The notes under the pieces are model-generated. The model was given only the letters and a program-made list of their open reading frames with translations. It had not been told where the DNA came from and did no database searches. Positions 372 to 48,102 of a stretch of DNA of 64,000 nucleotides are shown here, piece after piece. Each line of letters starts with the position of its first letter. Position 1 is the stretch's first letter. The position numbers and the translations under genes were made by a program. Source of the stretch: Candidatus Poribacteria bacterium (GTDB taxonomy: Bacteria > Poribacteria > WGA-4E > WGA-3G); assembly GCA_965214095.1 (NCBI GenBank), contig OZ243938.1, forward strand, positions 128,001 through 192,000. Reading direction: 5' to 3'.

Positions 372-1389
372 TCTCCCCACGATCTGACATCTATTGTTAT
401 GCCCTAACAAATCAAGAATCGCACCCTCTTCATATCAGACGATCTGTCATCAGAAGCTTGCTCGTTCCATTTCGTTTCACATGGCTATGATGAGACGTAA
501 CTACATTTCACTACGACAACGCCACAGGTACTTCACTACTGCTACGGTTGTATGCTGACGCACCGGCCTTGGCAGACGCATCATACACCCGCATTCACTC
601 CACCATCCCCGTCTGTTGCATCTGTCCCGTTGCTTTATGAAACCCTTCATAAATACCCAATGACCACCCGTAAAACTGAAACGCAAAACCTGTCAAATCC
701 GTAATCGTATGCAAAACCTTGACAAACGTGTTCAAATTACTTCCGTATCAACATCTTGCGCGTCGCAGTCCAATCACCCGCTTTGAATGTATAGAAATAC
801 ACACCTGCCGCAACCTTTTCACCGATTGCGTTCCGACCATCCCAATGTGCAGCACGGCTACGACTTCTGTAGAAACCTGCCTTCTGATGTCCTAACACTA
901 ACCGCCGCACGACGACACCACGCATATTGTAGATTGTTATTGTGACATCCGATGCTTTGGACAATTGATACGGTAGCCATGTTTCAGGGTTGAACGGGTT
1001 GGGATAATTCAACAGTAAAGCAGTAGTGTTTGGTGTAGCATCTTTGTTAAGGGAAGGCGCGCCGGTATCAGCAGCGTAGATTTCTACCGGCAAGCCTGTG
1101 GAAGGTTTGACGAATCTGTAGCCGGTATGATAATAGGCGGGGATAACTACTATATGGAAAATATCTACAGTGACAGCTTCTGTTGTTCCGGGGGTACGCG
1201 TAACAGTAAAAGTACTACTTTCATTCATTCCTGTGGAAATTCGGAGGACTTTTGGATCAGGGTTTGTCCCATGCTCAAGCTTGATATATACAACAACGTC
1301 ATACGGTGCACCTAATGGTATCACTGCCTTGACTTTCCCGTCTTCAACTTTCTCCAGCGATACAGTAAACAGCATCGGGTCTACGAGGT

Positions 1390-2140
1390 TACCTAATAAC
1401 CAGAGTCCTAGCAGATCGAAGAGTCCGTTACAGGTGCCCGGTGGTAAAGAACTCAATCTGTTATGCTCCAGATAAAGTAATTGCAATTTAACAAGATTAT
1501 TAAAGATGCCTGATGGCAAGGAACTCAAATCGTTATGATCCAGATCAAGGTATACCAATTTAGCAAGGTTATCAAAGATATCTGGTGGTAAGGAACTTAA
1601 ATCGTTATTGCCTAGTCTAAGTTCTTCCAAATTTGTAAGGTTGTCAAAGAGACCCGGCGGTAAAGAACTCAAATCGTTATTGCCTAGTCTAAGTTCTTCC
1701 AAATTTGTAAGGTCGTCAAAGATATCTGATGGTAAGGAACTCAAATCGTTATTGCCTAGTCTAAGTTCTTCCAAATTTGTAAGGTTGTCAAAGATATCTG
1801 ATGGCAAGGAACTCAAATCGTTATCGTACAGCAGAAGCTGTTTCAAATTTGTAAGGTTGTCAAAGAGACCTGGCGGCAAGGCACTTAAATCGTTATTGGC
1901 CAATATAAGCATTCTCAATTTGGTAAGGTTGTCAAAGAGACCCGGCGGTAAAGAACTCAAATCGTTATTGTCCAAAGAAAGTAGTTCCAATGCAGTAGTG
2001 TTATCAAAGAGACCCGGTGGCAAGGAACTCACGCTGCCGTATCTCATAAAAAGCGTTTCCAATGCAGGCAATTCATCAAAAATACCTTCGGGTAAAGAAG
2101 TAAAATCATTATAACCCAGATCAAGCTTTCTCAATCGGGT
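1390..2140 (-). repeat. 72-bp (24-aa) tandem LRR repeats, about 10-11 units, three nearly identical
   Basis: AAATCGTTATTGCCTAGTCTAAGTTCTTCCAAATTTGTAAGG recurs at 1599, 1671 and 1743 (72-nt period). The protein reads LEELRLGNNDLSSLP three times. Confidence 0.95.
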
Positions 2141-2918
2141 GAGTCCATTGAAATCGCCGGCACTCAACGATGTGATTGCGCGTCTGTCGCGTCTGTTTAG
2201 GTCCAAATCTCTGATTTTCGCCAGATCTTCTGGTGTTACATCATCATCAGTTGCTACGCCAGCTGCAGCAACGATAGCATCCCGAACTGCTGGTGTTCGA
2301 CTGCTAATCGGCGGATCAATAATTTCGGGTACATCGGTAACATTTATCGTCACTGTGATGCTGTCAGTACCATTGTTCCCATCAGAGACAGAAATTATGA
2401 GCGCATACAAGGTTTTCGTTTCATAATCCAACGTTGAACTTGTTTTCAGTATACCGTCATCACGACCAATCTCAAACGCATTATGATCCGTGCTGTTATT
2501 ACTACTGAGACTGTAGATTAAGGTGTCACTGGTATCCTGATCTGTCGCTGTGTAAGTGCCGATCTCTCTGCCAATTGCCACAGTCTCAGCAACATCTATG
2601 CTTGTCCTATACCCTGGTGTGAATACTGGAGGATCGTTGTCATTTGTAACGTTAATCGTGATACCAATAGTATCGCTTGCCTCCTCATCGGAGACAATCA
2701 CTGTTATCAAATAACTGGCTTTGGTCTCATAATCAAGCACAATACCGGTTCTGAGTTGTCCTGTGTTTGGAACAATAGTGAACGCGGCAGCATCACTATT
2801 GATACCGATCCGATAGGTTAAGGTATCACCAGTATCCTGATCTGTTGCAGAAACAGGCGTGCCGACATTCGTTCTCACCTGTGTATTCTCAGCAACGTAA
2901 CGCACTGCGGTAGTGCCT

Positions 2919-4120
2919 TCTGTGAACACGGGTGCATTATTCGGTGTTTGCGTACCCTGATCCGTTTCACCGGCGCGTTGAGGTGTTCCATCGTCATTCT
3001 GACCCGTTTCACCGCTGCCTTGATTCGTAGGTTTATCATCGTCTTTATTTACGACGGTCTCATCTTTATCAGATATATTGACGATGACATCAATGCTGGT
3101 GATGTGTGTGCCATCAGAGACAGTTACTCTTACCTTATAAGTCTTATCTGGGTCTAAAGTGACACCTTCTTTAACTCCCAATTCTCCTGTTTCGGGATCA
3201 ATATCAAACAATTCAGCATCGTCACCGCTGAGCGAATAAGTCAACGTATCGCCATCCGGGTCTGTGGCAGTGATGGTTCCCTCTGTTGTTTCTGTTTCCG
3301 CTTCTGTTGTGATGGTGATAGTCGTGGTTGTGCCTTGGGTGAACACAGGTGGGTTTTCCTCAACATCAATAATATTAATGACAACATCAATACTTGCGGT
3401 GCGTTCTCCATCAGAGGCAGTGATGATGACTGCGTAAGAGTTGTTTGTTTCATAATCCAGTGGTGCTTCTGTTTTCAATTGTCCAGTCGTGCTATCAATA
3501 CTAAACAATGCATCGTCAGTGCCAGCAAGGCTATAGGTAAGGGTGTCGTCATCAGGATCCGTGGCAACAACGGCATCCCCGATGTTAGTCCCTGCCGTTG
3601 TATTTTCTGTCACAGAACGTCTGGTGTTTGTGCCTTCTGAGAACACGGGTGTGCGATTTGACTGGGGTGGTGGTTGTGTTTGTGCTGTTTCGTCAATATC
3701 CGTGACGTTTATCGTAACGTCAATCCTATCTGTGACCTTCCCATCTGTCACGGTAATCGTCACCGAATAGATTGATTGTGTTTCGTAATCCAAAGCAATG
3801 CTGGTTTGCAGCTGCCCTGTGTTATTGTCAACACTGAAAGAACCAGCATCTGTACCACCAAGTGTATAAATCAACGTGTCATTGTCGGCATCTGTTGCTG
3901 TAACGGCATCCCCGATGTTTTCACCTATTTCAGTATTCTCTTCGACAGATCGGGTGGTGGTGCTGCCCTCTGTGAACACGGGTGCATTATTCGGTGTTTG
4001 CGTACCCTGATCCGTTTCACCGGCGCGTTGAGGTGTTCCATCGTCATTCTGACCCGTTTCACCGCTGCCTTGATTCGTAGGTTTATCATCGTCTTTATTT
4101 ACGACGGTCTCATCTTTATC
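2919..4120. repeat. Perfect 152-bp direct repeat (2919-3070 = 3969-4120), 1050-bp period
   Basis: Identical base by base. It encodes the linker DKDETVVNKDDDKPTNQGSGETGQNDDGTPQRAGETDQGTQTPNNAPVFTE. Confidence 0.95.
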
Positions 4121-7100
4121 GGAGATGTTGATGTTGACATCAATGATGGTGTTGTGTGTGCCATCAGAAACAGTTACCGTTACCATATAAGTCTCACCTA
4201 GTTCTAAAGTTACACCTTCCTTGACTTTCAATTCCCCGGTGTTGGGATCAATATCAAACAGTTCCGCATCGTCGCCACTGATCGAATAAGTCAATGTGTC
4301 GCCATCCGCGTCTGTGGCAGCGATAGCCGCTTCTGTTTCCAATTTCGTTGTGATGGTAATAGTTGTGGTTGTGCCTTGGGCGAATACAGGTGGGTTCTCC
4401 TCAACATCAATAACGTTGATGATAACATCAATATTTGCTGTGAGTTCTCCATCAAAAGCAGTTACCTTCACTGAATAGGATGATTTTGTTTCATAATCCA
4501 ATGGAGATCCTGTTCTCAATTGTCCAGTCGTGTTATCAATACTAAACAATGCAGCATCAGTGCCTTCAAGGCTATAAGTGAGAGTGTCGTCATCAGGGTC
4601 CGTGGCAACAACGGGATCCCCGATATTTTCACCTATTTCAGTATTTTCCTCCACATTCCGAGTCGTGCTGCTACCCTCAGTAAACATCGATGCGCGATTT
4701 TCATTTACATCAGTTATTATGATCGTCACCGAAATGCTTGCAATAGTATCACCATCGGTAGCGGACACGATAACGGTATAGGTAGACTTTGTTTCAAAAT
4801 CAAGGTCTTCCTTCGTTGTCAATTGCCCCGTTTCAGGATCAACCTCAAACGCATCAGCATCTTCTCCGCCCAGGGTATAGGTAAGCCTATCGTTATTCGC
4901 ATCAAGTGCTGTGAATGCTGTGCCGATGTTTATGCCTTCTTCTGTGTTTTCTGGAACAGAGTATGTGGTTGGCGTGGTTTGTGTGAATATAGGTGCTACA
5001 TTGATTAGGGGAAAGATTTCAAGCGGCAAGGCATCTGATTTGACTAACTCGTAGCCTGCATGTAGTGATGGTATGTGTGGGAGTTCACTAATATCTACGG
5101 TAACAGCATCAATCGTGTCTGGCGTTCGGGTGACAGTGTAAGTGTCGCTTTCCACACTACCTTGTGGGATTGTGATGGTGTCTATACTATCAGATATAGT
5201 TCCATTTGTGGTGGTCAGTGTGAGCGATATATCAAACGGCGCACCTGTGGGAATAACCGCTTTGAAACCGTCTTCATCAACCTTTTCTAACGATAAAGTC
5301 AGTGTTAAAGGATCAACGGCGTTTCCACTGAGATCCAATGATTCCAATGACACAAACCCTTCAAAAATACCATCCGGCAGATATGTCAGTTTGTTACCCC
5401 GCAGACTCACTGTTTTCAGTGATAATAGACCATCAAATATGTCTTCTGGTAGATGTGCTAATTCGTTATTGTTGAGATAGAGTGTTGTCAGTGCCAGCAT
5501 ACCAGAGAAGTCATGTGTCCTGAGTGATTTGATCCGCATATCAACTAAATTGAGGTTTGTGATAACAGCAAGATCAACATCTGCCACGTTCTGACAATGC
5601 ATCAATAGTGGATACATCGCTTCAATCGCCGTTACCACTTCGGGTGTGCGATTACACGCAGTTGATCTGGCAAGAACATAGCCGTAATGATTTAGCGGAA
5701 TATCGGCTAACTTCCCTATATCCATAATCGGTGTTTCCCCTGTGGGTACAATCGTAAAAGTTTCACTCTTCAGTGTGCCTTTCTGCACAGTAACCGTTGT
5801 TGTATCTCCGCTGATATTGCCATCGGTAACGATAATCGGTACAACAATATCAAAAGGTGCACCTGTCGGCACAATCACTTGAAATTGGTTTGTGTCAACC
5901 TGTTGTATTGAAACAAAAATCGGCATCGGATTAAGCAGATTATTGCCTAATCGCAGTGTTGTAAGTGCTGTCAAACCTTCAAATATACCAGCAGTCAGAC
6001 CTGTTAGTTTGTTACCGTGAAGGTTGATATCGGAGAGATTAGGCATACCAGAAAAATCACCAGTCTTCAGTCTTGTGATACCGGTATCGCGAAGATTGAG
6101 TGCTGAAATTGCCGCGATCTGTGCATCGGTTATCTCGTCTATAGCAGGTGTCTCTATGAGATTGTTAGCGACTACGACGTTTTCCACTATTGCATCGCGC
6201 ACTTGTGGTGTCCGTTCGCTAAGAGGTAGTGATACAGAGACAAATTCTGTGTCCGCCAAGTCTATCAGACGGATAATGACAGTTATCGTGTCGGTGAGTT
6301 GTCCATCTGATGCAGTGACACTTACAAGATACAACGGCTTCCTTTCAAAATCCAAAGCTGTCTTCGTTTTGAGTTGTCCAGTTTCGGTATCAATATCAAA
6401 TGCATCTGCATCAATACCACCAAGTGAGTATGTGAGGGTGTCGTCTGGTGTGTCGGGAGCATTGTCCATATCTGCTACTGTATCTATAGCCGTGATAGGT
6501 GTGCCAATGTTTTCACCTGCTGCCGTATTCTCTGTTACTGTGCGGACAGTGATAACACCATCAGTGAAAGTCGGGGCGAAGTTGTCTAACACATCAATGA
6601 CATTGATGGTAACTGTGATAGTATCTGTGAGCAGTCCATCGGAAGCGGTGAGCGTGACTGAATAGAAGAACTTTGTTTCGTAGTCTAATGCTGTTTTTGT
6701 TTTAAGTTGTCCAGTTTCAGGGTCAATATCAAACGCCTCTGCGTCAATACCTCCAAGTGTATATGTAAGGGTGTCGTTTGCGTCCATATCTGTTGCAGTA
6801 ATGGGATTACCGATGTTTGTGTCTGATGCCGTATTCTCATCAACAGAAACCGTGATACTTGCACCATCCGCAACACAGGTGGGACATTGCCAATAATAGC
6901 AACAATCGGAAGTGTCTCAGATTTGGATAACACATAACCGTAGTGGTTGCGCGGTAGGTTCGGTAGATTTCCGATGTCCGCAGTGGCATCCAATCTTGAA
7001 TCGGGTGGACGATTGACTGTGATACTCTCGCTAACCATACTCCCTATAGGTATGGTAACCGTCGTGACATTATCCATAAGTATACCGTTGGAAACGCTAA

Positions 7101-7586
7101 TCGGCAGGACAATATCAAATGGAGCACCTTCCAGGACAACAGCCCTAAACTTCCCTTCTGCGACCTTCTCCAATCCGATAGTAAGTGGCAGCGGATCAAC
7201 CGTATTGCCACCTAATCGTAGCGATGTCAAGGCATCCAGTCCTTCAAAAATACCAACCGGCAGACGTCTGAGTTCGTTGGCATATAGGTTCAGATTTGTC
7301 AACCCTGTCAAGCCTGAGAAATCACCAGTTTGCAGTTCAGAAATAGCTGCATTTCTCAGATTGAGCTCAGTTATTGCAGCCAGATGTGCTTCGGTCAATT
7401 GGTCGGCAGTATTGACACCCGCAGCAGATGTGATAGCATCCCGCACCTGTGCTGTGCGTTCACTTGCAGGGACGACTTCGGCTGAAATACCAAAATTCAT
7501 ACCAATAGGAAAAATAACCAATAAAACGGTCATAACACAATTTTGATTCAAAAGTTGCGTAATCACAAGTAACTCCACTTTCATTA

Positions 7587-7792
7587 CCAGGACCGGTAGG
7601 TTCGGTTTCCTAACCGAACCATGGGCGTCAATTTAGTGTAAATTAGGCGTTTTCCCCAGGACGGTAGGTTCGGTTTCCTAACCGAACCGGATCCTACGCG
7701 AGAACCTCTATGAAGGTATTTGGCACAAAGCCGGTTCGGTTTCCTAACCGAACCTACCGGCCCTTGGAAGGACACTAAATTGACCACCCATG
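7587..7792. repeat. GTAG-type REP cluster / MITE-like element
   Basis: Hairpin GGTTCGGTT-TCCT-AACCGAACC occurs three times: 7596-7620 and 7664-7688 with 5' GTAG, and 7733-7757 with 3' CTAC. An outer imperfect inverted repeat is CATGGGCGTCAATTTAGTGT (7620-7639) / ACACTAAATTGACCACCCATG (7772-7792). Confidence 0.85.
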
Positions 7793-7838
7793 ATGCGATT
7801 TCCAAACTGCACTATTTACTCAGCCCTGAAAAAACTCC

Positions 7839-10800
7839 TTACTTTCGTATCAACATCTTCCGCGTAGTCGTGAAATCTCCTGCCTTGAATGTGACAAAAT
7901 AGACTCCTGCAGCTACCTTCTCACCAATACTATTTCTACCATCCCAATAAGCAGCACGGTTCCGATTCATGTAGAAACCTGCTTTTTGATGTCCCAATAC
8001 TAACTTACGTACAACAACCCCACGCATATTGTAGATCGTCAATGTAACATCCGATGCTTTCGCTAACTGATACGGTATCCACGTTTCAGGATTGAACGGG
8101 TTGGGGAAATTGGACAAGAGAACAGTCTTGTCGGGTGGCTGGATGTTGCTGGGTGCAGGAGGAATAGCATCAATCACCGTCAACGGCAAATCATCGGATT
8201 TTGTATAATTGCAGCCAGAAAAGCCGGAGAGCGTTGGTAATGTACTAATATCTACCGTAACAGCCTCGGTTGTACCTGCAGTGCGTGTAACGGTGAACTC
8301 ATCACTTTCCACTTCACCTGCTTCCATGACAATACTTGTGACATCACCTGAGATACTTCCATTCGTAACAGCAACGACTGTAGTTGCTTCCTTGGGTGCT
8401 CCTGCGGGTATTTTTACCTTGAACTTTCCATTTGCTGTCTTTATGAGCGTTACGGGGATAGGGACATTGATATACGTCCCAAAACTAACATTGTTGTGAC
8501 TCAGACCAAGATAGCTCAGGTTGGAGAGAACTGTAAAGAACCCATCCGGTAACCTAAGAATATTGTTATTGAAAAGTTCGAGTCTCCTTAGAGCGGTAAG
8601 TGGTTTAAAAGCATCAAGATTTATATTTGCATTAAAACTATTTCCACTGAGATTAAGACTCTGAAGTTTGGTATTATATTTGAAAATATCAGAATGGAAA
8701 TTGAGTAAGTTGCTCTCACCTAATTTAAGGTCAGTCAAATTAACGAGATCATCAAAAATACCTACCGGTAAATTAGTACTATAGAATGAGAACTCTAAAT
8801 GAACCAAATTTACAAGGTCATTAAAATCACCACTGTTTGGATTCCCCACGCCATGGGCAATGTATGTCAATCTCCTAATAAATGAGAGATGATGATTTAG
8901 CAGGTCATCTCGCCTAAGATTCGGAAATCTATCCTTAAGAGCCCACATAATAGAACCATGAAGAGTAGCACCATCATCACTACCAAATATGATTCTTTGT
9001 GTGCGTTCACTAAGAGGAGGGTCAGGTGGGGTTTCATCTATGTCGTTGACCTCAATTGTGACAGCAAGCGTTGCACTATCATTACTTGAACCACTATCAT
9101 CCGTCACCTTGACGGTTATGGAATATGAAGATTGTTCTTCGTAATCCAGTACAACAGCTATTTTGAGCTGCCCGGTTTCACTGTTAATACTAAACGAATC
9201 CGCATCCGTCCCCTCCAGACTATAGGTCAACGTGTCCTCGTCTGCATCCGTTGCTGTAAAACGACTACCAAGGTTGGCATTTATCCTGTTTTTTTCATCA
9301 ACACTCAAGGTTGTACTGACACCGTCATTGAACACAGGCGGATTATTCGTACCAGGTATAATATTTATGTTTGGACCTTTTATGAGACTATATCCGTAAT
9401 GACCTGAGGGCAGGCTTGGTAGGCTGTCAATAGATGCATTGACTCTACTTGTAGAGCCAGAGTTCCGTGTGGCCGTAAGTGTTTCACTATCTGTGCTACC
9501 TCGTGAAATGGAAACACTTGTTACACTGCTATTAATAGTAGCGTTTGAGACACTTACAGGTACTTCTATTTCAAAAGGTGCCCCAACAGCTACCACGACT
9601 TTGAACTCACCGTCTTGGACTTTCACCGCAGTTATATCAAGTGGCAGTGGATCAACGCTGTTGTTTCTTAGGTCAACTCTGTCAAGACTCGAAAGGTTGA
9701 GAAATAACCCGTCCGGTATAGAACTGAAACTGTTGTTTGATAGGTTAATTTCATCAAGTGAAGTGAGTGTATTAAAAATACCATTAGGTAGACTGCTCAA
9801 ATTGTTCTCGCTGAGATCAATTGACTTGAGCGAAGTGTTGTTATCAAAAATCCCCGCGGGGACACTAGTTAAGTTATTCTCATCGGCTCTAAATGAAGTT
9901 ATTGACGTAAGTTCATTGAAAAGACCAGAAGGAAACGTTGTCAAGCTGTTATTTTCGAATGAAATTGCTGTTACACCGGTAAGATCATCAAAATCTCCAG
10001 TTTGAAGACTCGAAATATTCTTTTGTTTGAAATCGAGTGTGCCAGTAATAGCTGCCAGGTCGTCTGCTGCTATATATGCTGGATCGCTTATACCTGTTAC
10101 CGAGATGAGTTTATCGCGTACTTGTTGTGTGCGTTGATTGACAGGTGTGGATGTCTCCGTAGCGTCAAGGATATTGATGGTTACATCAATAGTATCACTG
10201 TTATCGCTATGACTGCTGTCATCAGTTACCTTGACGGTGACGGAATATGAAGATTCATCTTCAAAATCTAATTCTGCACTGGTTTTGAGCTGCCCGTTTG
10301 TGGTGTCAATGCTAAAGGATGCGGCATCTGTGCCTTCCAGGCTATATGTGAGTATATCAAGATCATCTGCATCTGTTGCGGTTAATGGAGCACCGATATT
10401 TGTACCGGGAGCTGTTATCTCCCTCACTGAAAGGGTGATACTGCTACCATCGTTAAATACTGGGGCATTATATTCAGTCCTAATTAAATTTATATTTGGA
10501 CCTTTCCTCAGCCTATAACCATAATGGTTCCAGGGGAGAGAAGAAAACGATCCCAAACTTACAGTGACATTCCCAGTTGTACCTTCGTCGCGTGTGACAG
10601 TAAATGTCTCGCTATCTGTACTGCCCTGTGAAATGGTTGCACTTGTGGCACCACCAGTGATGGAACCATTGGTGACACTCAGTGCCACTGTGATGTCAGT
10701 CGGTGCACCGGTAACTGCGACGACTTTGAACTGATCCACTGCAATTATTTCAAAAGTTATTTCCAGTGGCATCGGATCAACGGGGTTGCCATCCATATCA

Positions 10801-18221: not shown

Positions 18222-18269
18222 TTTTTTGTCCTTTCTTTGTGGAGAAAATCCACCTTTTAGTAATAGAAA

Positions 18270-26516: not shown

Positions 26517-26564
26517 AATAGATTCCTTTCGGTGTTGACCATAGACATATCATTTTTAAATAAC

Positions 26565-26715
26565 TTCTGACCTGCTGCTATGAAGGTGTAAAAATAAGGA
26601 CCAGTTGCGATTCTTATCAATGCAGTCTAGTTCATCCCAATGTTTAGTACCGCCTCGGGTGGCAGAATATCTGCGTGCCAACGGCTTAACGAGTGCACCA
26701 TTCGTGGCGTTAACC
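26565..26715 (-). pseudogene. Decayed relic of a FlgD-Ig/T9SS-CTD-like tail
   Basis: Minus-strand translation NATNGALVKPLARRYSATRGGTKHWDELDCID, then after a frameshift IATGPYFYTFIA. This aligns by eye to YNMRGVVVRRL..RSRAAHWDGRNAIGEKVAAGVYFYTFKA of the neighbouring genes. Confidence 0.6.
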
Positions 26716-26919
26716 GGAACAAAAAGAGGAGTATGTCCCGGTTGTTGCCACGATTTTTGGACTTGTCAGCTCCTGCTATTTACGATGACTGATTGATTCT
26801 GATAGTATCTCTATTCAAGTGAAATCCCTTTCGTTATAGTTTTGGTTACTTTTCTGAGTTCTCTACGATTAATGTCTAGCGATTCGGCCACTGTTTCTAC
26901 TGTTCCTCTTGTTGTGTAC

Positions 26920-28357
26920 TCAGAATTTTAATTCTGTCCACGAACAGATAGACCTACTTTTTGCAGACACAAACCCATGCATGCGAACGGTAACTAACTG
27001 AGTCTGATCTCCAGCATACGAGACATCCTCAAGACGATAATAGTAATCCGTATTAGGCTTGGCGGTGGTGTCTATCCAAGTGTATTCGGTGCGTTCTGCT
27101 GTTGTGCCTGACCCTATGACCATATTTGAGTTGACTATCCTGAATTCGCCACTCTTTGTTTCGCTGCGATAGATATGGAAACCTGCGTTGTCTACCTCCG
27201 ATTCGGTTGTCCATTTCAGCACAACACTTACATCAGTACGTTCTGCTCAGAATTGTCACTCGGATTGTTACAGATAAGCTGCTATCACTTACAATCACCT
27301 CTATTTCGTAGCTTTGCTGTGTTTGATAATCCAATGCTGCAAAGGTCAACAACTGTCCTGTGTTTTCATCAATCCGAAAGGATTCAGCATTGTGTCCGCC
27401 AAGTTGATATATGAGCGTATCACTACTATCGGGATCGGTTGCTAAGATGGGATTGCCGATATTGCTATCAGCACCTGTGTTTTCTGCAATTGATCGTGAG
27501 GTGGATAGACCTTCCGTAAATGACGGTGGACTGTTCTCAGGTTCTACATCAGTGACCTCAACTATAACTTCAATAGAATCCGTATTGACTACATTTCCAG
27601 GATTGCTATTTCTGTCTGATGCATTTTCATGATCACTATCATCAACACCTAACGTGAATGAATATGTATTATTGCCATCTTCATCAACAGGTGCTTCAAA
27701 ATCAAGCCGAGTAGATAACACTAATTGCGCACTACCATCAAATTCCATAAGAGAGAAATAATTGCTATCAGGTGTGTCCTGAAGGCTATATTTCAAACTA
27801 TTCTTTCCTTCATCAAGATGTATGTCATCTCCATCTGTGGCATTTATCACAACACCAATATTACTACCGACCTCTTGACTTTCTGGTATGGTGATTCGGA
27901 TCGGACCCTCCGATGAAAATTCTGGTGAATGTTCGTTTAGGTTGTTCACCAGAATAATAAGAATCATAGAGTCATGGTTCAAATACTGATCCATAACCCG
28001 AATTTTAACTTTATATTTTCTCTTTACCTCATAATCCAATTCAGTGACTGTTGTCACTGCACCGTTACGAAGGTCAATTGCAAAGTCGTCAGAGTCTCTT
28101 CCATACCAAGCATCAATCATATATTCCATTGGTTCATCTCCTGGATGCGATGCTGTTATTGTTATTAAATGTGTCCCAATGGCTTCCCCCTCATCCACAT
28201 TCGTATAAGATTCATGACTTGGAAGTCTGGGTGAATCATCACCATGTGGATGTGCATAAACCTGATTCCAGATGTCAAAACACATGTATTGATATAGAAC
28301 AGATGTTAGAAAAGTTATCAACAGACAAATTGTTCGGTTTGAGTTATTAATTCTCAT
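26920..28357 (-). pseudogene. Small secreted cadherin protein (3 repeats) out of frame with its C-terminal beta-sandwich domain
   Basis: ORF 27233..28357 (signal peptide plus cadherin repeats) ends abruptly at VTILSRTY*. The adjacent frame reads F*AERTDVSVVLKWTTESEVDNAGFHIYRS...WTELKF (ORF 26920..27222). This fits a small deletion or frameshift at about 27245-27255. Confidence 0.7.
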
Positions 28358-28387
28358 GAAACCTTCCCTTGTTTCATTTTGTAGAAT

Positions 28388-31300
28388 TTACTTTCGTATC
28401 AACATTTTTTGCGTAGCATAAAAATCTCCTGCTCTGATAGTGACGAAGTAGACTCCTGTTGCCACCTTCTCCCCGATGTTGTTTCTTCCATCCCAATGTG
28501 CCGCACGGCTTCTGCTGGTATAGAAACCCGCATTTTGATGACCAATTGCCAACTCACGTACCACCACACCACGCATATTGTAGATTGTCAACATAACATC
28601 CGCTGACTCTGACAACTGATACGGTATCCATGTCTCTGGGTTAAATGGATTCGGGAAGTTGGGTAAGAATGCAGTATCTTTGGGAACTTGTTGCTTATTT
28701 GATGGTGCTCCAGCAGGTTCACTAAAACCGTCTAATGCTGGAGGATCCGTTAATGTATAACCGCTATGATGACTTGGTGGATCTGTAACAGTCTGCAATA
28801 TCACACTGACTTCATCCCAATCGAATTTGTCATCGCGTGCAATTGTAATCGTTTCACTATCAGTGTTACCTTTGGCAATTGTAAGTTCGGGTCTATCCGG
28901 CCCAGTTTCATCCCCAACGTAACCTTTGACTATCCAAACCTGAGCAGTCATAGGATACGGTGCACCTGCTGGAATGACGATTTTGAATTTATTGTTTTCT
29001 ACTTTCTCTAAAGTAACCGTAAGGTCGAGTTCTCCTGCTTCTTGTTGGCTTAAGTAGAGATAATTTAACGCTGTAAGGTTGACGAATAAACCATTCGGAA
29101 AAGTCGTTAATTTATTGCTTCTCATGTTGAGTGTTGTGAGAGAAGTTAGCTTTTGAAAAATGGTTCCGGGTAGCGAACTCAACTCGTTACGTTCAAGGCT
29201 AATGGCTACCAGTGAGGTTAACGGATCGAAGATACCGGATGGCAGTGTGGTCAGTTTGTTATTCGACAATGTGAGATTGGTTAACGCAGATAAACCATCA
29301 AAAGCATCTGAGGGTAAAGATGCCAATCCGTTTTCACTTAGATTAAGATTTGTTAGTGCAGTGAGATTATCAAAGACACTGGATGGGACCGTGGTTAATT
29401 TATTATTATTCAATGGAAGGTTAGTTATACCACTCAAACTATCAAATAAACCTGCGGGTAAGGAAGCGATTTCGTTGTAACTTAAATTAATCTCCTCCAA
29501 TGCAGTAAGACCCTCAAAGTCATCTGAGGCAAATGTTTCAATATCTCCACCGCCAAGATTGAGAACCTTTAAGCTTGACATATCGTCAAAGAGACCATCA
29601 GGTAATGCTGTGAAATCGTTTCCCGCCAGCGATAAAGTCTCAAGAGAAGTTAGATCTGCAATAACATCAGGCACAGTTTCAAAATAATTTCCTTCAGTAT
29701 CAAGGGATGTTAGTAAAGTGAGACTGTCAAATATGCCATCTGGTAGGGTGGTTAAACTGTTATAACTAATATCAAGTGACGTTAATTGCGTGAGTGAGTC
29801 AAAAACACTATCTTGTAATGAATCAATGCCATTAACTTCTAAATCAAGTTTTTGTAGTGATGTCAAGTCGTCAAAGATATTATCTGGAAGAGACTCTAAG
29901 AAAATATTCCCTGTTAATGAAAGTGAAGTTAGTCCTGTGAGTCCGCTGAAATCACCTCCCATAAGTTCATAAATACTGTCACTGATACCTGGTGCTGAAT
30001 AGGAAAGGCTTGTAATGGCTGCAAGGTGTTCAGCAGTTACATCCGCGGCATCATCTACATCCGTAATAGCATCAAGAATCGCATCTCTTATTTGCTGTGT
30101 GCGATCACTAACAGGAACAAAGGCACCAGACTCGTCGGTTATATTGATCGTAACTATGATCGTATCCGTTGCCCCAGCGGCATCCGTCACTTTAACTGTC
30201 ACTGTGTATATGCTTTTCGTTTCATAGTCTAATTCATCCTTCGTTTTTAATTGACCCGTGCTGCTATTGATGTCAAACGAAGCTGCATCTGTGTCCGTGT
30301 CTTCAAGTGAGTAAGTTAATGTGTCATTTTCATCTGCATCCGTTGCAGACACAGGGTCACCGATCGGTGTATTGGAGAGTGTATTCTCACCAACCGAACG
30401 ATTCGCCGTTTCACCTTCATCAAATACGGGGGCATTGTTCGGCTCAGCACGGGTAACATTAACAGTCACATCGACCCATGAAGATTGTCTAACGACAGAG
30501 GCAAATACCCTAAAAGAATAGGAGAGTCTTCTATCGTCAATGAGTTCTGTTGTAGCTTTCAGCTGTCCCGTTTCACTATCAATATCAAATAGATCGCCAA
30601 CAACAACGACACTGTATGTGATCGTCTCACCCTCAGGATCCACGGCTACATAAGCATCACCGATAGCATCTCCATCCGATAAATTATTTATGTTGTCTAT
30701 ATCAATAGTCGTAGGTGCTGTAGTAAATACGGGACGTTCATTTACTGCTGTAACATTGATCGTTACGGGAATGGTCGTACTATTATTCTCTTCACCACTA
30801 TCTTCTGTTGCTGTAACGGTCACGCTATAGGTTGTCTGTGCGTTTGCAGCGTCAACATCCAGTTCATCCTTTGTTTTCAACTGTCCTGTGCTTGTATCAA
30901 AATCAAATGATGCCGCATCTGTCCCACCAAGGCTATAGGTAATGGTATCCCCATCTTGGTCAGTCGCAGCAATTGGACCACCGATGGCTGTATCTACAGC
31001 AGTAGTCTCAGGAACAGAACGGGTCGCACTCTCACCATCAACAAACGTGGGTGCATCGTTGACATCTCTGACAGAAATAGTCACTGTGATTGATGAACTA
31101 CCACTATTTGTGTCAGTAGCAACAACTCTTACGGTGTAGGTTGACTTCGTTTCATGGTCAAGTGCGTTCTTCATTGTTATCTGTCCTGTGGTATGATCAA
31201 TATCAAACGATGTCCTATCTGGACCTCTCAATGTATATGTGATTGTGTCACCTTCCAGATCCGTCGCAGAAACAGGTTGTCCAATGTTTGTATCTATCGG

Positions 31301-34300
31301 ACTGTTTTCATCAACAGCACGGGATGTCGTCGCACCCTCAGTGAAGGTTGGCACATCATTCGCATCTATTACCTTGATTGTTACCTGAATATTAGCAGTT
31401 TCATTATCCGCTCCGACCACTCTCACCGTCACCGAATATGTTGATTTATTTTCAAAATCAAGATCAGCAGCAGTTTTGATTTGCCCCGTAGCACTGTCAA
31501 TGCTAAACGATGAAGCATCCGTGCCACCAATCTGATAAATGAATTCGTCATTACCAACTACTATAGCTGTGACAGGGGCACCGATGTTGACACCAGAAGC
31601 CGTGTCTTCTGCAATCTCGCGCGTGGCAGAACTGCCATCGGTAAATACAGGTAAATCCGTTACAGTTATCGTGACCGTAATTGAATCGCTGAGTTCCCCA
31701 TCAGAGACGGTGATGCTAACGGAATAGGAGTTTTTGTTTTCAAAATCCAAGTCTCCACTTGTTCGCAATTGACCTGTTGTGCTATCAATGCCAAACGACG
31801 ATGCATCCGTGCCACCAAGCGTATATGTTAATGTATCGGTGGTATCCTGATCTGTCGCCGCAATTGGATTCCCTATATCTACTCCAGAACCTGTATTTTC
31901 AGCAACAGACCGCGTGGTACTGCTACCCTCTGTGAAGACTGGTGCTCTGTTAGGGTCTCTGACAACATTTTCCTGTTCGTCTGTGACACTGATATTCACC
32001 GTTATCACATCCGTTAGGCTACCATCTGATACAGTCAAGGTTACCTGATAACTGCTCTTATCTTCATAATCCAGCGCGGCTTTCGTCTGCAATCGTCTTG
32101 TGTTGCTATTGAAACTAAACGCCGCTGCATCCGTACCACCAAACGTATACGTCAATGTTGTATTCGCATCTGGGTCAGTTACCGAAAAAGCAGCTCCAAA
32201 CGCTGTCCCTGCTGAAGTGTTTTCAGCAACACTACGTATGGTACTATCACCTTCAGAAAACACCGGGGCTTCATTGACATTCGTCACATTGATCGTGACG
32301 CTGATAGTATCTGTCAGGCTACCATCCGAAACAGTTACGGTAACTTCATACGCGTCGTCGTCTTCATAGTTTAAGGATGCACTTGTCTTGATTTGTCCTG
32401 TTTTGTCATCAATTGCAAAGGATGATGCGTCCGTGCCACCCAGTTGATATGCAAGCGTTTCGCTATCCTCATCTGAAGCAGATACCGGATCACCGATGTT
32501 TGCATCCGATGTTGTATTCTCTGCCACACTCCGAGTCGTCTCTGTACCATCAGAGAATTCCGGCGCAATGTTAGACGGTGTCTCATCTAAATCCCTAATA
32601 GAAATACTCACAGCAATCGAATCGGTTAGACTATTATCCGAAACTTTAACCGTGACCGAATAGGACGATTTGGTCTCATAATCAAGGTATGCTTTCGTTT
32701 TCAATTGACCCGTTGTTGATTCAATGTCAAACGATGCTTTATCATCTCCATCCAATGTGTATGTAAGCGTATCATTTTCAGGATCAGTCGCCGCGACTGC
32801 ACTCCCAATGTTTACCCCCGTTGCAGTATTTTCTGTTATGGAGCGAGTCGTGCTTGTACCTGCTGTGAACGTGGGTGCTTCATTAACATCCACCACGTTG
32901 ATGGTAACATTTATACTCGCACTGCCACCGTTGCTATCTGAAACAGAAACCGTGACTGCATAAGACGCTTTGGTTTCATAGTTCAACGCAGCACTGGTTT
33001 TCAATTGTCCAGTTGTGTCATCAATACTAAATGACGATGCATCTGTGCCACCGAGACTGTAGGTTAACGTGTCATTATCCTCATCTGTTGCCTCCACAGC
33101 AGTTCCAATACTCACATCAGTAGCAGTATTCTCATCAATAGAACGCGTGGCACTACTCCCTTCGCTGAACTCTGGAGCACTATTCGTTGTTTCATCTACA
33201 TCAGTGATTTTGATGGTTACAGTAATGGTATCTGTACCTTTATTACCATCAGAGACAGAGATTATAACCGTATAGGAACGTTTCGTTTCATAATCTAATG
33301 CTGCACTGGTCCGCAACTGTCCAGAGGAACTATCTATGCCAAAAGAGGAGGCATCCGTCCCACTAAGACTATAAGTCAGTGTGTCATCTTCATCCGCATC
33401 TGTAGCACCCACAGCAGTGCCGATATTCACTCCCGAAGCTGTGTTTTCTGCTACAGAACGCGTGGTCGTGTTTCCTTCAGTAAATGTCGGTGCTCTGTTG
33501 GGTACGTCAGTGTCCTTCGTTTCTGTTTCATCTTGAGTATCTTGGGGTTCAGTAGTCTCTTCATCTATATCAACCACATTGATCGTTACATTAATGCTGT
33601 CCGATAAAACTCCATCGGAGACAGTGATTGTCACCACATAAAAAGTTGTTGCTTCATAATCAAGTGCAGATTTCGTTTTGAGTTGTCCTGTGCTGGAATC
33701 TATATCAAACGCGCTGGCATCTGTGCCACCGAGGCTATAAGTGAGCGTATTGTTTTCTGCATCTGATGCCGTAATAGCAGTGCCAATATTTGTACCTGCT
33801 TCAGTGTTCTCATCCACTTCACGTGTGGTCGCAGTGCCATCAGCAAATACAGGAGCCGTATTTATAGTTTCAAAAATCTCTATCGGTAGGTCGTTAGATT
33901 TGGCAAACGCATATCCTGTATGTCCAATGGGTAGGATCGGGAGGCTACCAATATCAACGGTGACTGCAGCAAACGTGTTAGAAGCGCGCAATACCGTTAG
34001 CGGTAGACTTTCAATACTCCCAGCAGGAATCGTTATGGTAGTCACATTATCGGCAAGGTTACCACTCGTGACGGTGATCGGTAAGACTATATCTGATGGT
34101 GCACCACTCGGTAGGCTGGCTTTGAACATGTTTGTGCCAACTTTCTGTAATGAAATGGTGAACGGAAGTGGGTCAACGGTGTTACCACTCAAATCCAATG
34201 TTGTTAAAGAAGTCAAACCTACAAATATACCATCAGGCAGACTATCCAATTGGTTATTGCTCAAGTTAAGAGATGTAAGAGACAGCAATCCTGTGAAATC

Positions 34301-36019
34301 ATCTGAATTGAGAGTTGAAACTGACATACCGCTCATGTCCAGCGATGTAATTGTCGCAAGGTGAACATCCGATACGTTACGGCAATCATCAATACCTTGC
34401 AGGGCCTCTACAATCGCATCACTCACCTGGATCGTCCGGTTGCAAACAGTAGATTTCGCGAGAATATAACCGAAATGGTTAGCAGGTAACGTTGGCAATA
34501 CACCGATATTTACATCTGAGGTAGTAGCAGTAAATACAGCACTTTCAAGACTTCCTTTTGGTATGGTTGTCGATGTTATACTTGCACCATTGATCGATAA
34601 CTCAACATCAAAGGGTGCACCAGCAAATATGACCGCCTTGAACTGATTTACATCAACTTGTTGCAGTGAAACATTTAGCGGGAATGGGTCAATCTGGTTC
34701 CCACCTAAACGCAGATTTGTGAGAGATGTCAAACCATCAAAGATACCCACTGGTAGGCTGTTCAACATATTACCGTATAGGTTTAGATTTGTGAGACCTG
34801 TCAACCCAGAAAAGTCACCTGTTTTCAGTTCGGTAATCCCTGCGGAACGAAAGTCAAGTGAGGTGATTTCGGCAAGGTGTGTGTCGGTAATGTCTTCGGC
34901 ATCGTTCACACTCGAAACCGCTGCAACGATAGCGTCACGAACTTGTGCAGTGCGATCACTGACAGGTAGCACTGTAGAGACCAAGACAGTTTCGACCACG
35001 TCAATGACACCAATGATGACAGTAATTGTATCTGTCAGACTATCATCGGATACAGAAATAGTTACCGTGTAGACGCGTTTTGTTTCATAATCTAATGGTG
35101 CTTTTGTCTTCAACTGTCCAGTCGTAGAATCTATATCAAACGATGCGGCATCAATCCCACTTAGACTGTAGGTTAAATTATCCTCATCAGCATCTGTGGC
35201 AGAGACAGCACTGCCAATATTAGAATCTGCAGCTGTATTCTCTGCTATATAACGGATCGTGGTAGTACCATCAGAAAATTCAGGTGCACTGTTTTCTGGC
35301 GTTTCTAAAGTATCAGTCGTATCAGTCGTTTCTGTTATATCGGTAGTATCGGTTTCTGTTACAGCACTGATAACTTCAATCGGTAATGTATCAGGTTTTG
35401 TAAGGGTATAGCCGTAATGGTCTGTTGGTAAACTGGGTAAGGTCCCAATATTAACGGTTACAGCGGCGGTTGTGTCAGCGGTACGTGTGAGGGTCAACAA
35501 CGCACTACTATCTATACTACCTTTGGAAATCGTGAGTGTCGTTTCATCGTCTGAAACAGTGGCGTTAGCAGCACTGATCGGCACAACAATATCAAACGGT
35601 GCACCTGTCGGTACTACGACTTTGAATTGATCCTCACCGACCTTTTCAACTGTGACTGAAATCGGTAACGGATCCACAGCATTGCTACCCAAACGTAAAC
35701 TCGTCAGTGAGGTTAAACCTTCGAATATTCCATTGGGTAGACTACTAAGTTCATTATTATACAAGTTAAGACTTGTCAATCCTGTCAAACCAGAAAAGTC
35801 ACCGAATTTCAATTCCGTAATTGCTTTGTTGCGAAGGTTTAAACTCGTTATTTCCGCTAAATGTGTCGCGGTAACCTCCGTAGCGGAATCTACCCCAGTT
35901 GTTGCAACAATAGCATCACGCACTTCAGATGTCCGATCTGCTACTGGCAAAATCTCTGTCTCCCCTCTCACTCCGATACAAACAAGCAATAAACAAATGA
36001 CTGAAATTAGGTATCTCAA
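28388..36019 (-). CDS. Giant secreted cadherin-repeat/LRR protein with T9SS-CTD/FlgD-Ig-like tail (paralog A, 2543 aa)
   Basis: TTG start after a GGGGAG RBS, signal peptide, 3 cap-LRR-Ig modules, about 13 cadherin repeats, a distal LRR block of about 13 repeats, and the tail FPNPFNPETW..QKMLIRK. Confidence 0.92.
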   Translation of the reverse strand: MRYLISVICLLLVCIGVRGETEILPVADRTSEVRDAIVATTGVDSATEVTATHLAEITSLNLRNKAITELKFGDFSGLTGLTSLNLYNNELSSLPNGIFEGLTSLTSLRLGSNAVDPLPISVTVEKVGEDQFKVVVPTGAPFDIVVPISAANATVSDDETTLTISKGSIDSSALLTLTRTADTTAAVTVNIGTLPSLPTDHYGYTLTKPDTLPIEVISAVTETDTTDITETTDTTDTLETPENSAPEFSDGTTTIRYIAENTAADSNIGSAVSATDADEDNLTYSLSGIDAASFDIDSTTGQLKTKAPLDYETKRVYTVTISVSDDSLTDTITVIIGVIDVVETVLVSTVLPVSDRTAQVRDAIVAAVSSVNDAEDITDTHLAEITSLDFRSAGITELKTGDFSGLTGLTNLNLYGNMLNSLPVGIFDGLTSLTNLRLGGNQIDPFPLNVSLQQVDVNQFKAVIFAGAPFDVELSINGASITSTTIPKGSLESAVFTATTSDVNIGVLPTLPANHFGYILAKSTVCNRTIQVSDAIVEALQGIDDCRNVSDVHLATITSLDMSGMSVSTLNSDDFTGLLSLTSLNLSNNQLDSLPDGIFVGLTSLTTLDLSGNTVDPLPFTISLQKVGTNMFKASLPSGAPSDIVLPITVTSGNLADNVTTITIPAGSIESLPLTVLRASNTFAAVTVDIGSLPILPIGHTGYAFAKSNDLPIEIFETINTAPVFADGTATTREVDENTEAGTNIGTAITASDAENNTLTYSLGGTDASAFDIDSSTGQLKTKSALDYEATTFYVVTITVSDGVLSDSINVTINVVDIDEETTEPQDTQDETETKDTDVPNRAPTFTEGNTTTRSVAENTASGVNIGTAVGATDADEDDTLTYSLSGTDASSFGIDSSSGQLRTSAALDYETKRSYTVIISVSDGNKGTDTITVTIKITDVDETTNSAPEFSEGSSATRSIDENTATDVSIGTAVEATDEDNDTLTYSLGGTDASSFSIDDTTGQLKTSAALNYETKASYAVTVSVSDSNGGSASINVTINVVDVNEAPTFTAGTSTTRSITENTATGVNIGSAVAATDPENDTLTYTLDGDDKASFDIESTTGQLKTKAYLDYETKSSYSVTVKVSDNSLTDSIAVSISIRDLDETPSNIAPEFSDGTETTRSVAENTTSDANIGDPVSASDEDSETLAYQLGGTDASSFAIDDKTGQIKTSASLNYEDDDAYEVTVTVSDGSLTDTISVTINVTNVNEAPVFSEGDSTIRSVAENTSAGTAFGAAFSVTDPDANTTLTYTFGGTDAAAFSFNSNTRRLQTKAALDYEDKSSYQVTLTVSDGSLTDVITVNISVTDEQENVVRDPNRAPVFTEGSSTTRSVAENTGSGVDIGNPIAATDQDTTDTLTYTLGGTDASSFGIDSTTGQLRTSGDLDFENKNSYSVSITVSDGELSDSITVTITVTDLPVFTDGSSATREIAEDTASGVNIGAPVTAIVVGNDEFIYQIGGTDASSFSIDSATGQIKTAADLDFENKSTYSVTVRVVGADNETANIQVTIKVIDANDVPTFTEGATTSRAVDENSPIDTNIGQPVSATDLEGDTITYTLRGPDRTSFDIDHTTGQITMKNALDHETKSTYTVRVVATDTNSGSSSITVTISVRDVNDAPTFVDGESATRSVPETTAVDTAIGGPIAATDQDGDTITYSLGGTDAASFDFDTSTGQLKTKDELDVDAANAQTTYSVTVTATEDSGEENNSTTIPVTINVTAVNERPVFTTAPTTIDIDNINNLSDGDAIGDAYVAVDPEGETITYSVVVVGDLFDIDSETGQLKATTELIDDRRLSYSFRVFASVVRQSSWVDVTVNVTRAEPNNAPVFDEGETANRSVGENTLSNTPIGDPVSATDADENDTLTYSLEDTDTDAASFDINSSTGQLKTKDELDYETKSIYTVTVKVTDAAGATDTIIVTINITDESGAFVPVSDRTQQIRDAILDAITDVDDAADVTAEHLAAITSLSYSAPGISDSIYELMGGDFSGLTGLTSLSLTGNIFLESLPDNIFDDLTSLQKLDLEVNGIDSLQDSVFDSLTQLTSLDISYNSLTTLPDGIFDSLTLLTSLDTEGNYFETVPDVIADLTSLETLSLAGNDFTALPDGLFDDMSSLKVLNLGGGDIETFASDDFEGLTALEEINLSYNEIASLPAGLFDSLSGITNLPLNNNKLTTVPSSVFDNLTALTNLNLSENGLASLPSDAFDGLSALTNLTLSNNKLTTLPSGIFDPLTSLVAISLERNELSSLPGTIFQKLTSLTTLNMRSNKLTTFPNGLFVNLTALNYLYLSQQEAGELDLTVTLEKVENNKFKIVIPAGAPYPMTAQVWIVKGYVGDETGPDRPELTIAKGNTDSETITIARDDKFDWDEVSVILQTVTDPPSHHSGYTLTDPPALDGFSEPAGAPSNKQQVPKDTAFLPNFPNPFNPETWIPYQLSESADVMLTIYNMRGVVVRELAIGHQNAGFYTSRSRAAHWDGRNNIGEKVATGVYFVTIRAGDFYATQKMLIRK

Positions 36020-44739: not shown

Positions 44740-44940
44740 GTCAATAACCCCGTGCTAAAGCATCGGGGCTTGTGCGAAGCGCATGCCAAGCGTTCACTCC
44801 ACAAGTTAAACTATTTTCTACAGTCATATATCGGGTGTTCTGAACGTGGCAGTCCAATGTATGTTTCGGATGCTCCCCAAGTCCGATTCCTCTACGAATA
44901 CCCGATCTGGATGGGGCAATATATACTCTTCGGAGGTTTA
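44740..44940 (+). ncRNA. omega RNA (HEARO-like) scaffold of IsrB
   Basis: Lies upstream of the PLMP ORF. Helices are CCCCG/CGGGG, CTTGTG/CACAAG, ATCGGGTGTTC/GAATACCCGAT and TCGGA/TCCGA, whose loop CCCCA is complementary to a downstream TGGGG (pseudoknot). It ends with a CTC-TTCG-GAG hairpin. Confidence 0.75.
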
Positions 44941-44943
44941 CAC

Positions 44944-48030: not shown

Positions 48031-48102
48031 AGGGCGGTGGCCAAGCGGTAAGGCACAGGTCTTTGGAATCTGCATGCGTAGGTTCGAATCCTACCCGCCC
48101 TG
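48031..48102 (+). tRNA. tRNA-Gln(UUG), CCA not encoded
   Basis: Acceptor AGGGCGG/CCGCCCT, D-arm GCC..GGC, anticodon arm CAGGT-CTTTGGA-ATCTG, T-arm GTAGG-TTCGAAT-CCTAC, discriminator G. Confidence 0.97.

Follow-up and report, generated by a model that had tools for sequence, protein, structure and literature searches.

The 64,000-nucleotide (nt) window analyzed here, positions 128,001 to 192,000 of contig OZ243938.1 from a Candidatus Poribacteria bacterium, contains a tandem array of giant genes, four of which (A, B, C, and D) appear in the open reading frame (ORF) list as co-oriented genes on the minus strand (Table 1). All four encode a common plan consisting of a putative signal peptide, three short modules in which a cap, leucine-rich repeats (LRRs), and an Ig-like domain follow one another, a stalk of cadherin repeats, one or more long LRR modules (here called heads), and a tail. 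Four co-oriented paralogs with one shared plan had been proposed at these positions from the DNA letters alone (the original prediction), and their presence was confirmed by the ORFs, by Pfam, and by a hidden Markov model (HMM) of our own. The earlier list of array genes was correct in that all four are present, but gene A is actually frameshifted and a small fifth gene, E, had been overlooked. In gene A, the frame is lost near positions 6868 to 6875, where frame 1 reads ...IIGNVPPV and cadherin sequence resumes in the other frame. In gene E, the frame changes from 27233..28357 into a 100-amino-acid (aa) ORF at 26920..27222 of the minus strand (W.T.SE.DNAGF...YYYRLEDV...), which matched no family in Pfam or NCBIfam and may be what is left of another kind of C-terminal domain.

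Table 1. Coordinates of the array genes, their parts, and other features of the window
Feature	Position(s)	Strand	Content or basis
Gene A, whole	737..7584	-	Interrupted by a 1-base frameshift
Gene A, main ORF (2016 aa)	737..6787	-	2 cadherins, modules 2 and 3, 8 cadherins, long LRR head, tail
Gene A, 5' piece	6685..7584	-	Signal peptide (by eye) and first cap-LRR-Ig module; LRR_8, 38.7 bits
Gene A, head	1076..2317	-	Cap, 11 LRRs of 24 aa, Ig-like domain
72-nt tandem array in gene A head	1440..2031	-	80% match
Gene B (3460 aa)	7839..18221	-	Putative signal peptide, three short modules, 18 cadherins, three LRR modules, tail
Gene B, N-terminal scaffold	16032..18125	-	Module 1, (TTD)n linker, cadherin 1, modules 2 and 3
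Gene B, cadherin stalk (15 repeats)	11352..16025	-	Cadherin HMM domains
Gene B, head region	8112..11348	-	3 heads with single cadherins in between
Gene B, heads	1: 10473..11348; 2: 9348..10151; 3: 8112..9029	-	Reading of cap and LRR motifs
Gene C (2748 aa)	18270..26516	-	Putative signal peptide, three short modules, 15 cadherins, one long LRR head, tail
Gene C, head	18543..19988	-	Cap, ~12 LRRs, Ig-like domain
Gene D (2543 aa, TTG start)	28388..36019	-	Putative signal peptide, three short modules, 13 cadherins, one long LRR head, tail
Gene D, head	28664..30121	-	Cap helices, 14 LRR strands, beta-sandwich (model)
Tails, ~90 aa (NPFNPETW...KMLIRK)	A 740..1012; B 7842..8111; C 18273..18542; D 28391..28663	-	TIGR04183/FlgD_ig
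Gene E, small, broken, between C and D	26920..28357	-	Putative signal peptide and 3 cadherins (27233..28357), then frame change
B-C conversion tract, B side (B aa 763-1054)	15060..15935	-	Identical four-fold sites
B-C conversion tract, C counterpart	~23697..24257	-	Identical four-fold sites
1167-aa protein, divergent from gene D	36380..39883	+	No Pfam match
RRXRR-domain protein (399 aa), among metabolic genes	44752..45951	+	PF14239, 119.8 bits
tRNA-Gln (anticodon ttg), only RNA gene found	48031..48102	+	Rfam, ARAGORN

Pfam Cadherin (PF00028) matched 10, 18, 15, and 12 stretches in A, B, C, and D, respectively (343 to 644 bits; cutoff, 28.8), and an HMM built from gene C's own repeats found 10, 18, 15, and 13 domains, identical to the counts of about 10, 18, 15, and 13 given originally. 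By regular expression, a DxD-like Ca2+ motif was present in 55 of the 56 repeats and an LDYE-like Ca2+ motif in 50 (8/10, 17/18, 14/15, and 11/13 in A to D); the repeats carry the classical Ca2+-binding motifs and are predicted to bind the ion. LRR_8 matched 10, 12, 9, and 9 stretches in A to D. Every LRR unit opens with a helical cap bearing RT..VRDAI, continues with a number of 24-residue LRRs, and passes through N.VDP into a beta-sandwich ending in H.GY. Recurrence of the cap motif and of the N.VDP entry in all units agrees with the earlier description, as does the 24-residue period, visible both in the 72-nt tandem units of gene A and in spacings of 24 in the repeats. N-terminal units contain 3 LRRs and C-terminal units 6 to 13, the latter arranged as one long unit in A, C, and D and as three units separated by single cadherins in B, just as the original prediction had it. 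The heads do not represent a separate unit type, being cap-LRR-Ig modules like the others but with 6 to 13 repeats rather than 3. Two further length features were observed in the N-terminal part and the stalk. A (TTD)n linker after module 1, encoded by an in-frame 9-nt repeat on the minus strand (B, ~17460..17540; C, 25780..25845; D, 35295..35365), differs in copy number among B, C, and D and is likely a slippage-prone length polymorphism. The gene A stalk contains, at 2883..4627 of the minus strand, an internal duplication of ~1050 nt (85 to 89% identity) with a repeated acidic linker, DKDETVVNKDDDKPTNQGSGE...

Structural models were made of both kinds of LRR unit. The model of a short module (module 1 of gene B; pLDDT, 96.7) contained two cap helices, 3 LRR strands, and a beta-sandwich, and that of the gene D head (pLDDT, 93.1; pTM, 0.89) had the same parts, with 14 LRR strands instead of 3. 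Judged from their sequence, the LRRs are of the "typical" 24-residue animal type. Profile matches in the PDB included LRRTM (7.6 × 10−61), LGR5, variable lymphocyte receptors (VLRs), and TLR13, covering LRR positions 31 to 122 only. Since designed consensus LRRs score as high as natural animal LRRs, horizontal gene transfer from animals was not adopted as the origin of the repeats. A fold search with the gene D head matched LRRTM2 (38 to 41% identity) and Leptospira LRR proteins, and alignment of this head with InlA extended over 489 to 528 columns, the whole cap-LRR-Ig length (TMq, 0.47 to 0.53; root mean square deviation [rmsd], 11 to 12 Å). For the short module, the fold search returned nothing at E ≤ 10−3; alignments covered its cap and LRRs only, with no counterpart to the Ig-like part. 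The analogies first drawn to VLRs and Toll-like receptors (repeat type) and to internalins (domain order) therefore hold as resemblances, not as membership in those families.

Along the proteins, the N-terminal modules and stalk (the scaffold) and the heads diverged to different extents. Genes B and C were 85 to 95% identical per 100 aa from residue ~100 to 2299, and identity then fell to 25 to 40% exactly at the head cap and returned to 81% in the tail. The difference was smaller between C and D (scaffold, 42 to 78%; head, 32 to 47%) and weak between A and C (scaffold, ~31 to 60%; head, 34 to 48%). The earlier statement that N-terminal modules and stalks are very similar among copies is thus strongly borne out for B and C but less so for the other two pairs. 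Synonymous divergence (dS) between B and C was a mosaic, with a value of 0.03 at B residues 711 to 1015, values of 1 to 1.8 at residues 311 to 610, and saturation in heads and tails. The longest run of identical four-fold sites was 99, compared to a mean of 20 after shuffling, and was reached in none of 5000 shuffles. In addition, B was locally close to D (p4 of 0.28 versus 0.53 to 0.82 elsewhere) where it was farthest from C. Together, the dS mosaic, the 99-site run, and the B-D tract indicate gene conversion among neighboring copies; we conclude that the scaffolds of neighboring copies are homogenized by this process. In a tree of 40 short modules, the position classes m2 (SH-aLRT, 99) and m3 (SH-aLRT, 100) were older than the species, and within each position class copies from one genome clustered. 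Another genome (chromosome OZ244616.1) showed the same pattern, with two genes 70 to 97% identical for ~2380 residues and then divergence with large gaps. Identity of the gene D head was 40 to 43% to heads of its own genome and 37 to 47% to heads of other species; heads are no closer within the genome than between species.

The original prediction had also stated that the LRR blocks near the tail differ strongly between copies, and the variation we found agrees with it. In 38 head repeats, entropy was 3.15 bits at the five concave x positions versus 1.47 at the others, and in the scaffold repeat (40 modules, five species) it was 0.93 and 0.70, respectively. Among 13 related pairs, which are not independent and of which 9 have 24-residue heads, 138/310 concave and 198/1178 framework positions differed in the heads, compared to 45/190 and 135/722 in the scaffold modules. 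A comparison of nonsynonymous to synonymous divergence (dN/dS) at concave and framework positions, proposed originally as a check, could be made in part. For the heads in the window, dN/dS was not measurable because dS was saturated, their divergence being ancient. Database searches with the gene C head and the gene C N-terminal scaffold found no same-species relative for this purpose. The head search gave 2024 matches at E ≤ 10−3 among 7998 scored, with 33 to 51% identity among the 120 matches listed (highest among them, 51%), and the scaffold search gave 848 matches at E ≤ 10−100 among 8000 scored, with a best nonwindow identity of 67%. The sole recently diverged head pair with DNA to compare was on OZ244616.1 (L001_9968 and L002_3_8552), with heads of the 22-residue internalin type lacking the Ig-like domain. 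In this pair, dN/dS was 3.0 across the concave positions (55 codons) and 0.25 across the framework (187 codons) (Fisher P = 0.003; 3 × 10−7 for the two-by-two contrast). The alignment also contained whole-repeat gaps, that is, repeat turnover, and the value of 3.0 may be inflated because turnover could align nonorthologous repeats. The two genes themselves (L001 9968..22078 and L002 3..8552) are giants ending in such 22-residue heads.

Relatives from the databases extended this variation. In 71 proteins that carry the N-terminal scaffold in full, the stretch following the final cadherin ranged from 0 to 1241 aa; 8 had a tail only, 17 lacked the tail motif, 4 carried 22-residue LRRs, and several matched neither of the LRR patterns used (24 or 22 residues). 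Heads of 49 scaffold-sharing relatives fell into 29 clusters at 50% identity. Elsewhere, this family of scaffolds bears heads of other types. Neither a reverse transcriptase nor an invertase or a silent cassette was found in the window. A diversity-generating retroelement was rejected as an explanation, with no reverse transcriptase among 23 flanking ORFs and with direct repeats that proved to be paralogous domains only, and an invertase or shufflon was rejected given the absence of an invertase or silent cassette in the window. The "candidate diversifying recognition system" proposed originally is not supported as far as active diversification is concerned, no such machinery having been found in the window.

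A genome scan with an alignment of the N-terminal scaffold returned 11 loci. Eight of these were in four Candidatus Poribacteria species represented by metagenome-assembled genomes (MAGs), with N-terminal scaffolds 58 to 64% identical, and all eight held tandem giant genes of the same plan; the other three were one weaker Poribacteria match and two weak gammaproteobacterial matches. Two of the four species are single-chromosome records (6.07 and 5.92 Mb). The loci L001 and L002 adjoin on chromosome OZ244616.1, where together they make up an array with four or more genes. The product of gene D is identical to database protein P0206, and the contig of this protein codes for at least four additional giant family members (4298, 4684, 3845, and 3382 residues). 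The 1167-aa protein next to gene D has orthologs in the same position flanking the array in L001 and L006 (50 and 43% identity, respectively). The comparison across related genomes called for originally thus yielded similar and partly syntenic arrays in Poribacteria MAGs. Identity between species was 37 to 53% for heads, 60 to 73% for the scaffold, 58 to 77% for the tail, and 43 to 50% for the unrelated 1167-aa neighbor; scaffold and tail thus stand out by their unusual conservation. The bacterium carrying this array is probably sponge associated, judging from what the accessible text of Kamke et al. (2014, PMC3909097) says of the phylum.

The common tail that the original prediction assigned to the four genes is present and is recognizable as a sorting-type domain. 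Tails of A, B, C, and D matched NCBIfam TIGR04183, the type A sorting domain of the type IX secretion system (T9SS), at 33.4, 28.4, 27.1, and 28.6 bits (cutoff, 23), over profile positions 2 to 71 of 72 and at the extreme C terminus. They also matched Pfam FlgD_ig (PF13860; 29.7 to 34.8 bits; cutoff, 27). The N termini of B, C, and D and of the gene A 5' piece are, by eye, charged and then hydrophobic, each protein has only 3 to 4 cysteines, and no LPXTG anchoring motif (LP.TG) was found in any array protein. On their hydrophobic N termini, sorting-type tails, and few cysteines, the proteins look exported, consistent with the surface or secreted binders first proposed. In Bacteroidota, the type A T9SS domain is cleaved and the protein is attached at the new C terminus. 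If the tail acts in the same way here, the C terminus would be the anchored end; the variable LRR block would lie close to the cell, and the tip would be formed by the three conserved N-terminal modules. This would reverse the earlier picture, in which "distal heads" and "different reach" presuppose N-terminal anchoring. The TIGR04183 domain has already been reported in eukaryote-like proteins of Poribacteria, as the available part of Kamke et al. (2014, PMC3909097) describes.

We interpret the array as a tandem family of giant exported adhesin-like proteins whose LRR heads form the variable binding surface, and we give this interpretation a probability of about 0.62. The domain organization, the structural models, the tracts of conversion, and the variability of the heads are what the analysis directly establishes. 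The family has evolved by tandem duplication, gene conversion of the scaffold, and gain and loss of whole repeats in the heads; the heads escape homogenization, so that each copy would keep a different binding surface. Mechanistically, the proteins would be exported via Sec, the C-terminal domain would carry them across the outer membrane or attach them to it, the cadherin stalk would be stiffened by Ca2+, and the concave LRR faces could bind ligands of the host matrix, of host cells, or of neighboring cells.

Several observations weigh against this interpretation. Pfam Por_Secre_tail (PF18962) scored only 18.6 to 24.9 bits on the tails, under its gathering score of 27, and no secretion machinery was found in the 64-kb window or among 19 flanking ORFs of related loci. 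For the partial single-cell genomes of Poribacteria, the accessible text of Kamke et al. (2014, PMC3909097) likewise gives the structural genes of Por secretion as not found. A dN/dS above 1 was obtained for a single pair only, over 55 codons and in another genome, and repeat turnover could cause it. Three repeats of the gene A head have identical concave residues (EERGN) and therefore point to recent repeat expansion rather than to a diversified surface. Two array genes, A and E, are broken. Finally, because the identity of heads across species is about that of the unrelated neighbor, the unusual feature may be the conservation of the scaffold rather than the divergence of the heads.

Much of this evidence would also fit an ordinary old paralog family of structural surface or matrix proteins, in which heads drift under weak constraint and do not determine specificity and in which scaffold likeness reflects recent duplication or conversion. 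Saturated dS in heads and tails, cross-species head identity equal to that of the neighbor gene, repeat turnover (the 72-nt array in A and the whole-repeat gaps), the weak scaffold/head contrast between A and C, and the broken state of A and E all favor such a family. We nevertheless regard it as a possible but doubtful account: in the same pairs, concave variation is concentrated in the heads and not in the scaffold modules (138/310 versus 45/190), the measurable head pair is under purifying selection in its framework (0.25) with 3.0 at concave positions, and conversion tracts end at the head boundary in two genomes. A stronger version of the adhesin interpretation appears unlikely to us as a whole. 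It would make the array a germline recognition repertoire with a converted stalk and trio, exchangeable heads, concave faces under diversifying selection, and distinct sponge host or neighbor ligands. As part of it, the position before the sorting domain would be an exchangeable slot for 24-residue LRRs with Ig, 22-residue LRRs, other domains, or none. If true, this repertoire would be a bacterial counterpart, reached through paralogy and recombination, of the LRR receptor repertoires of animals.

It is also conceivable that the proteins are released and mimic those of the host, either serving as decoys or modulating phagocytosis or cell recognition in the sponge, a role already proposed for further eukaryote-like proteins of sponge symbionts. 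Their LRRs are nearest in sequence to animal extracellular LRR proteins (LRRTM, 7.6 × 10−61; LRRTM2, 38 to 41%), and LRR and cadherin proteins of sponge symbionts are viewed as host interaction factors in the accessible parts of two studies (PMC3909097, PMC8163846). However, the equal scores of designed consensus LRRs suggest that this likeness may reflect a consensus-like repeat alone, a terminal sorting-type domain on a rod of 10 to 18 cadherins fits a tethered fiber better, and no release signal was seen, making mimicry improbable. A chimeric array, or one collapsed by assembly from related strains or repeats, would account for the ~98% DNA identity of B and C over ~900 nt and for the frame breaks in A and E, which could be indel errors. 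It is hardly credible given that four other Poribacteria MAG species, of which two are single-chromosome records, carry arrays built on this plan, that gene D is identical to a protein from a contig of 5,206,209 bases, and that the paralogs are unlike in length, repeat number, and heads. We therefore retain the interpretation of an exported adhesin-like family with variable LRR heads.

Other features of the window and of related loci were recorded alongside the array. Between A and B, a 22-nt palindrome occurs in three exact copies at 66- to 68-nt spacing (7599..7754), with extended arms and alternating orientation (a match in 0 of 100 shuffles). No further copy was found in the window or in the 11 related loci, and the palindrome may be an element of the repetitive extragenic palindrome (REP) or miniature inverted-repeat transposable element (MITE) kind or a transcript-end structure. 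Scanning 400..800 and 7560..7860 for promoters and terminators yielded nothing informative. For the 1167-aa protein, the nearest Atlas cluster was a Poribacteria hypothetical family (0.98), with Prim-Pol-like clusters (0.94) as leads only. Genes farther downstream are housekeeping genes (MutS, ribosomal protein L25, peptidyl-tRNA hydrolase, and oxidoreductases). Flanks of the related loci contained transposases, Uma2, and a PBP, the transposases (IS605 OrfB/TnpB-like, DDE) lying beside the arrays at L001 1728..2885, L004 5021..6181, and L008 8530..9804.

Several known systems resemble the array proteins in part. BspA of Tannerella forsythia and InlJ of Porphyromonas gingivalis are T9SS-sorted LRR surface proteins with Ig-like domains and a C-terminal sorting domain, and Pfam LRR_5, the model for the BspA type, scored 87 to 125 bits on the array proteins. 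The latter differ in having LRRs of the 24-residue typical type, 10 to 18 cadherin repeats, and a length two to three times greater, and T9SS machinery in their phylum is only putative. With the internalins InlA, InlB, and InlH, the proteins share a helical cap, LRRs, and a fused beta-sandwich in that order, and InlB and InlH align to the cap and LRRs of the short module at ~2 Å rmsd. In contrast to internalins, the repeats have 24 rather than 22 residues, LPXTG is absent, and NCBIfam internalin_A scored 22.1 bits against a cutoff of 1600. By analogy with InlA and E-cadherin, one might imagine LRRs that bind cadherin here, but we regard this idea as speculation. Lamprey VLRs belong to the same 24-residue LRR class (36 to 48% identity over ~65 columns), and in the array heads, too, variation falls on concave strand positions. 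Unlike VLRs, however, the array genes are complete germline paralog ORFs with no somatic assembly, and their proteins have a helical cap and 3 to 4 cysteines each rather than cysteine-knot caps. RTX adhesins and the gliding adhesin SprB are very long rods of Ca2+-binding Ig- or cadherin-like domains with ligand-binding domains near one end. The array proteins differ from these in secretion signal and polarity, in carrying LRR modules at both ends, and in repeats that score as classical cadherin (PF00028, 343 to 644 bits).

Another close precedent is provided by the eukaryote-like repeat proteins of sponge symbionts, including Poribacteria, which share phylum, domain types, and proposed role with the array proteins. 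LRR, cadherin, and the TIGR04183 tail are all known from them, and a role in host association has been proposed, according to the available portions of Kamke et al. (2014, PMC3909097) and Robbins et al. (2021, PMC8163846). In those portions, the two papers give domain counts in fragmented genomes and do not describe full architecture, arrays, homogenization, or a head slot. Among the papers listed in literature searches, none had a title or abstract opening that dealt with whole-gene architecture, arrays, homogenization of the scaffold up to the head, or a head slot. We read the array as a variant of known eukaryote-like surface adhesins.

These findings bear on the genomics of sponge symbionts, where eukaryote-like LRR and cadherin domains have long been counted while their parent proteins stayed obscure because short-read genomes break such genes. 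Finding a T9SS-type sorting domain in a phylum for which no T9SS was found in the 2014 single-cell genomes sharpens an existing problem. Whole genes are now visible, in the window and in related MAGs, as 2000- to 4700-residue fibers with a fixed plan, organized in arrays. A vague domain enrichment is thereby turned into testable molecules, for which one may ask which end is anchored, what ligand the N-terminal trio binds, and whether head variation follows host species.

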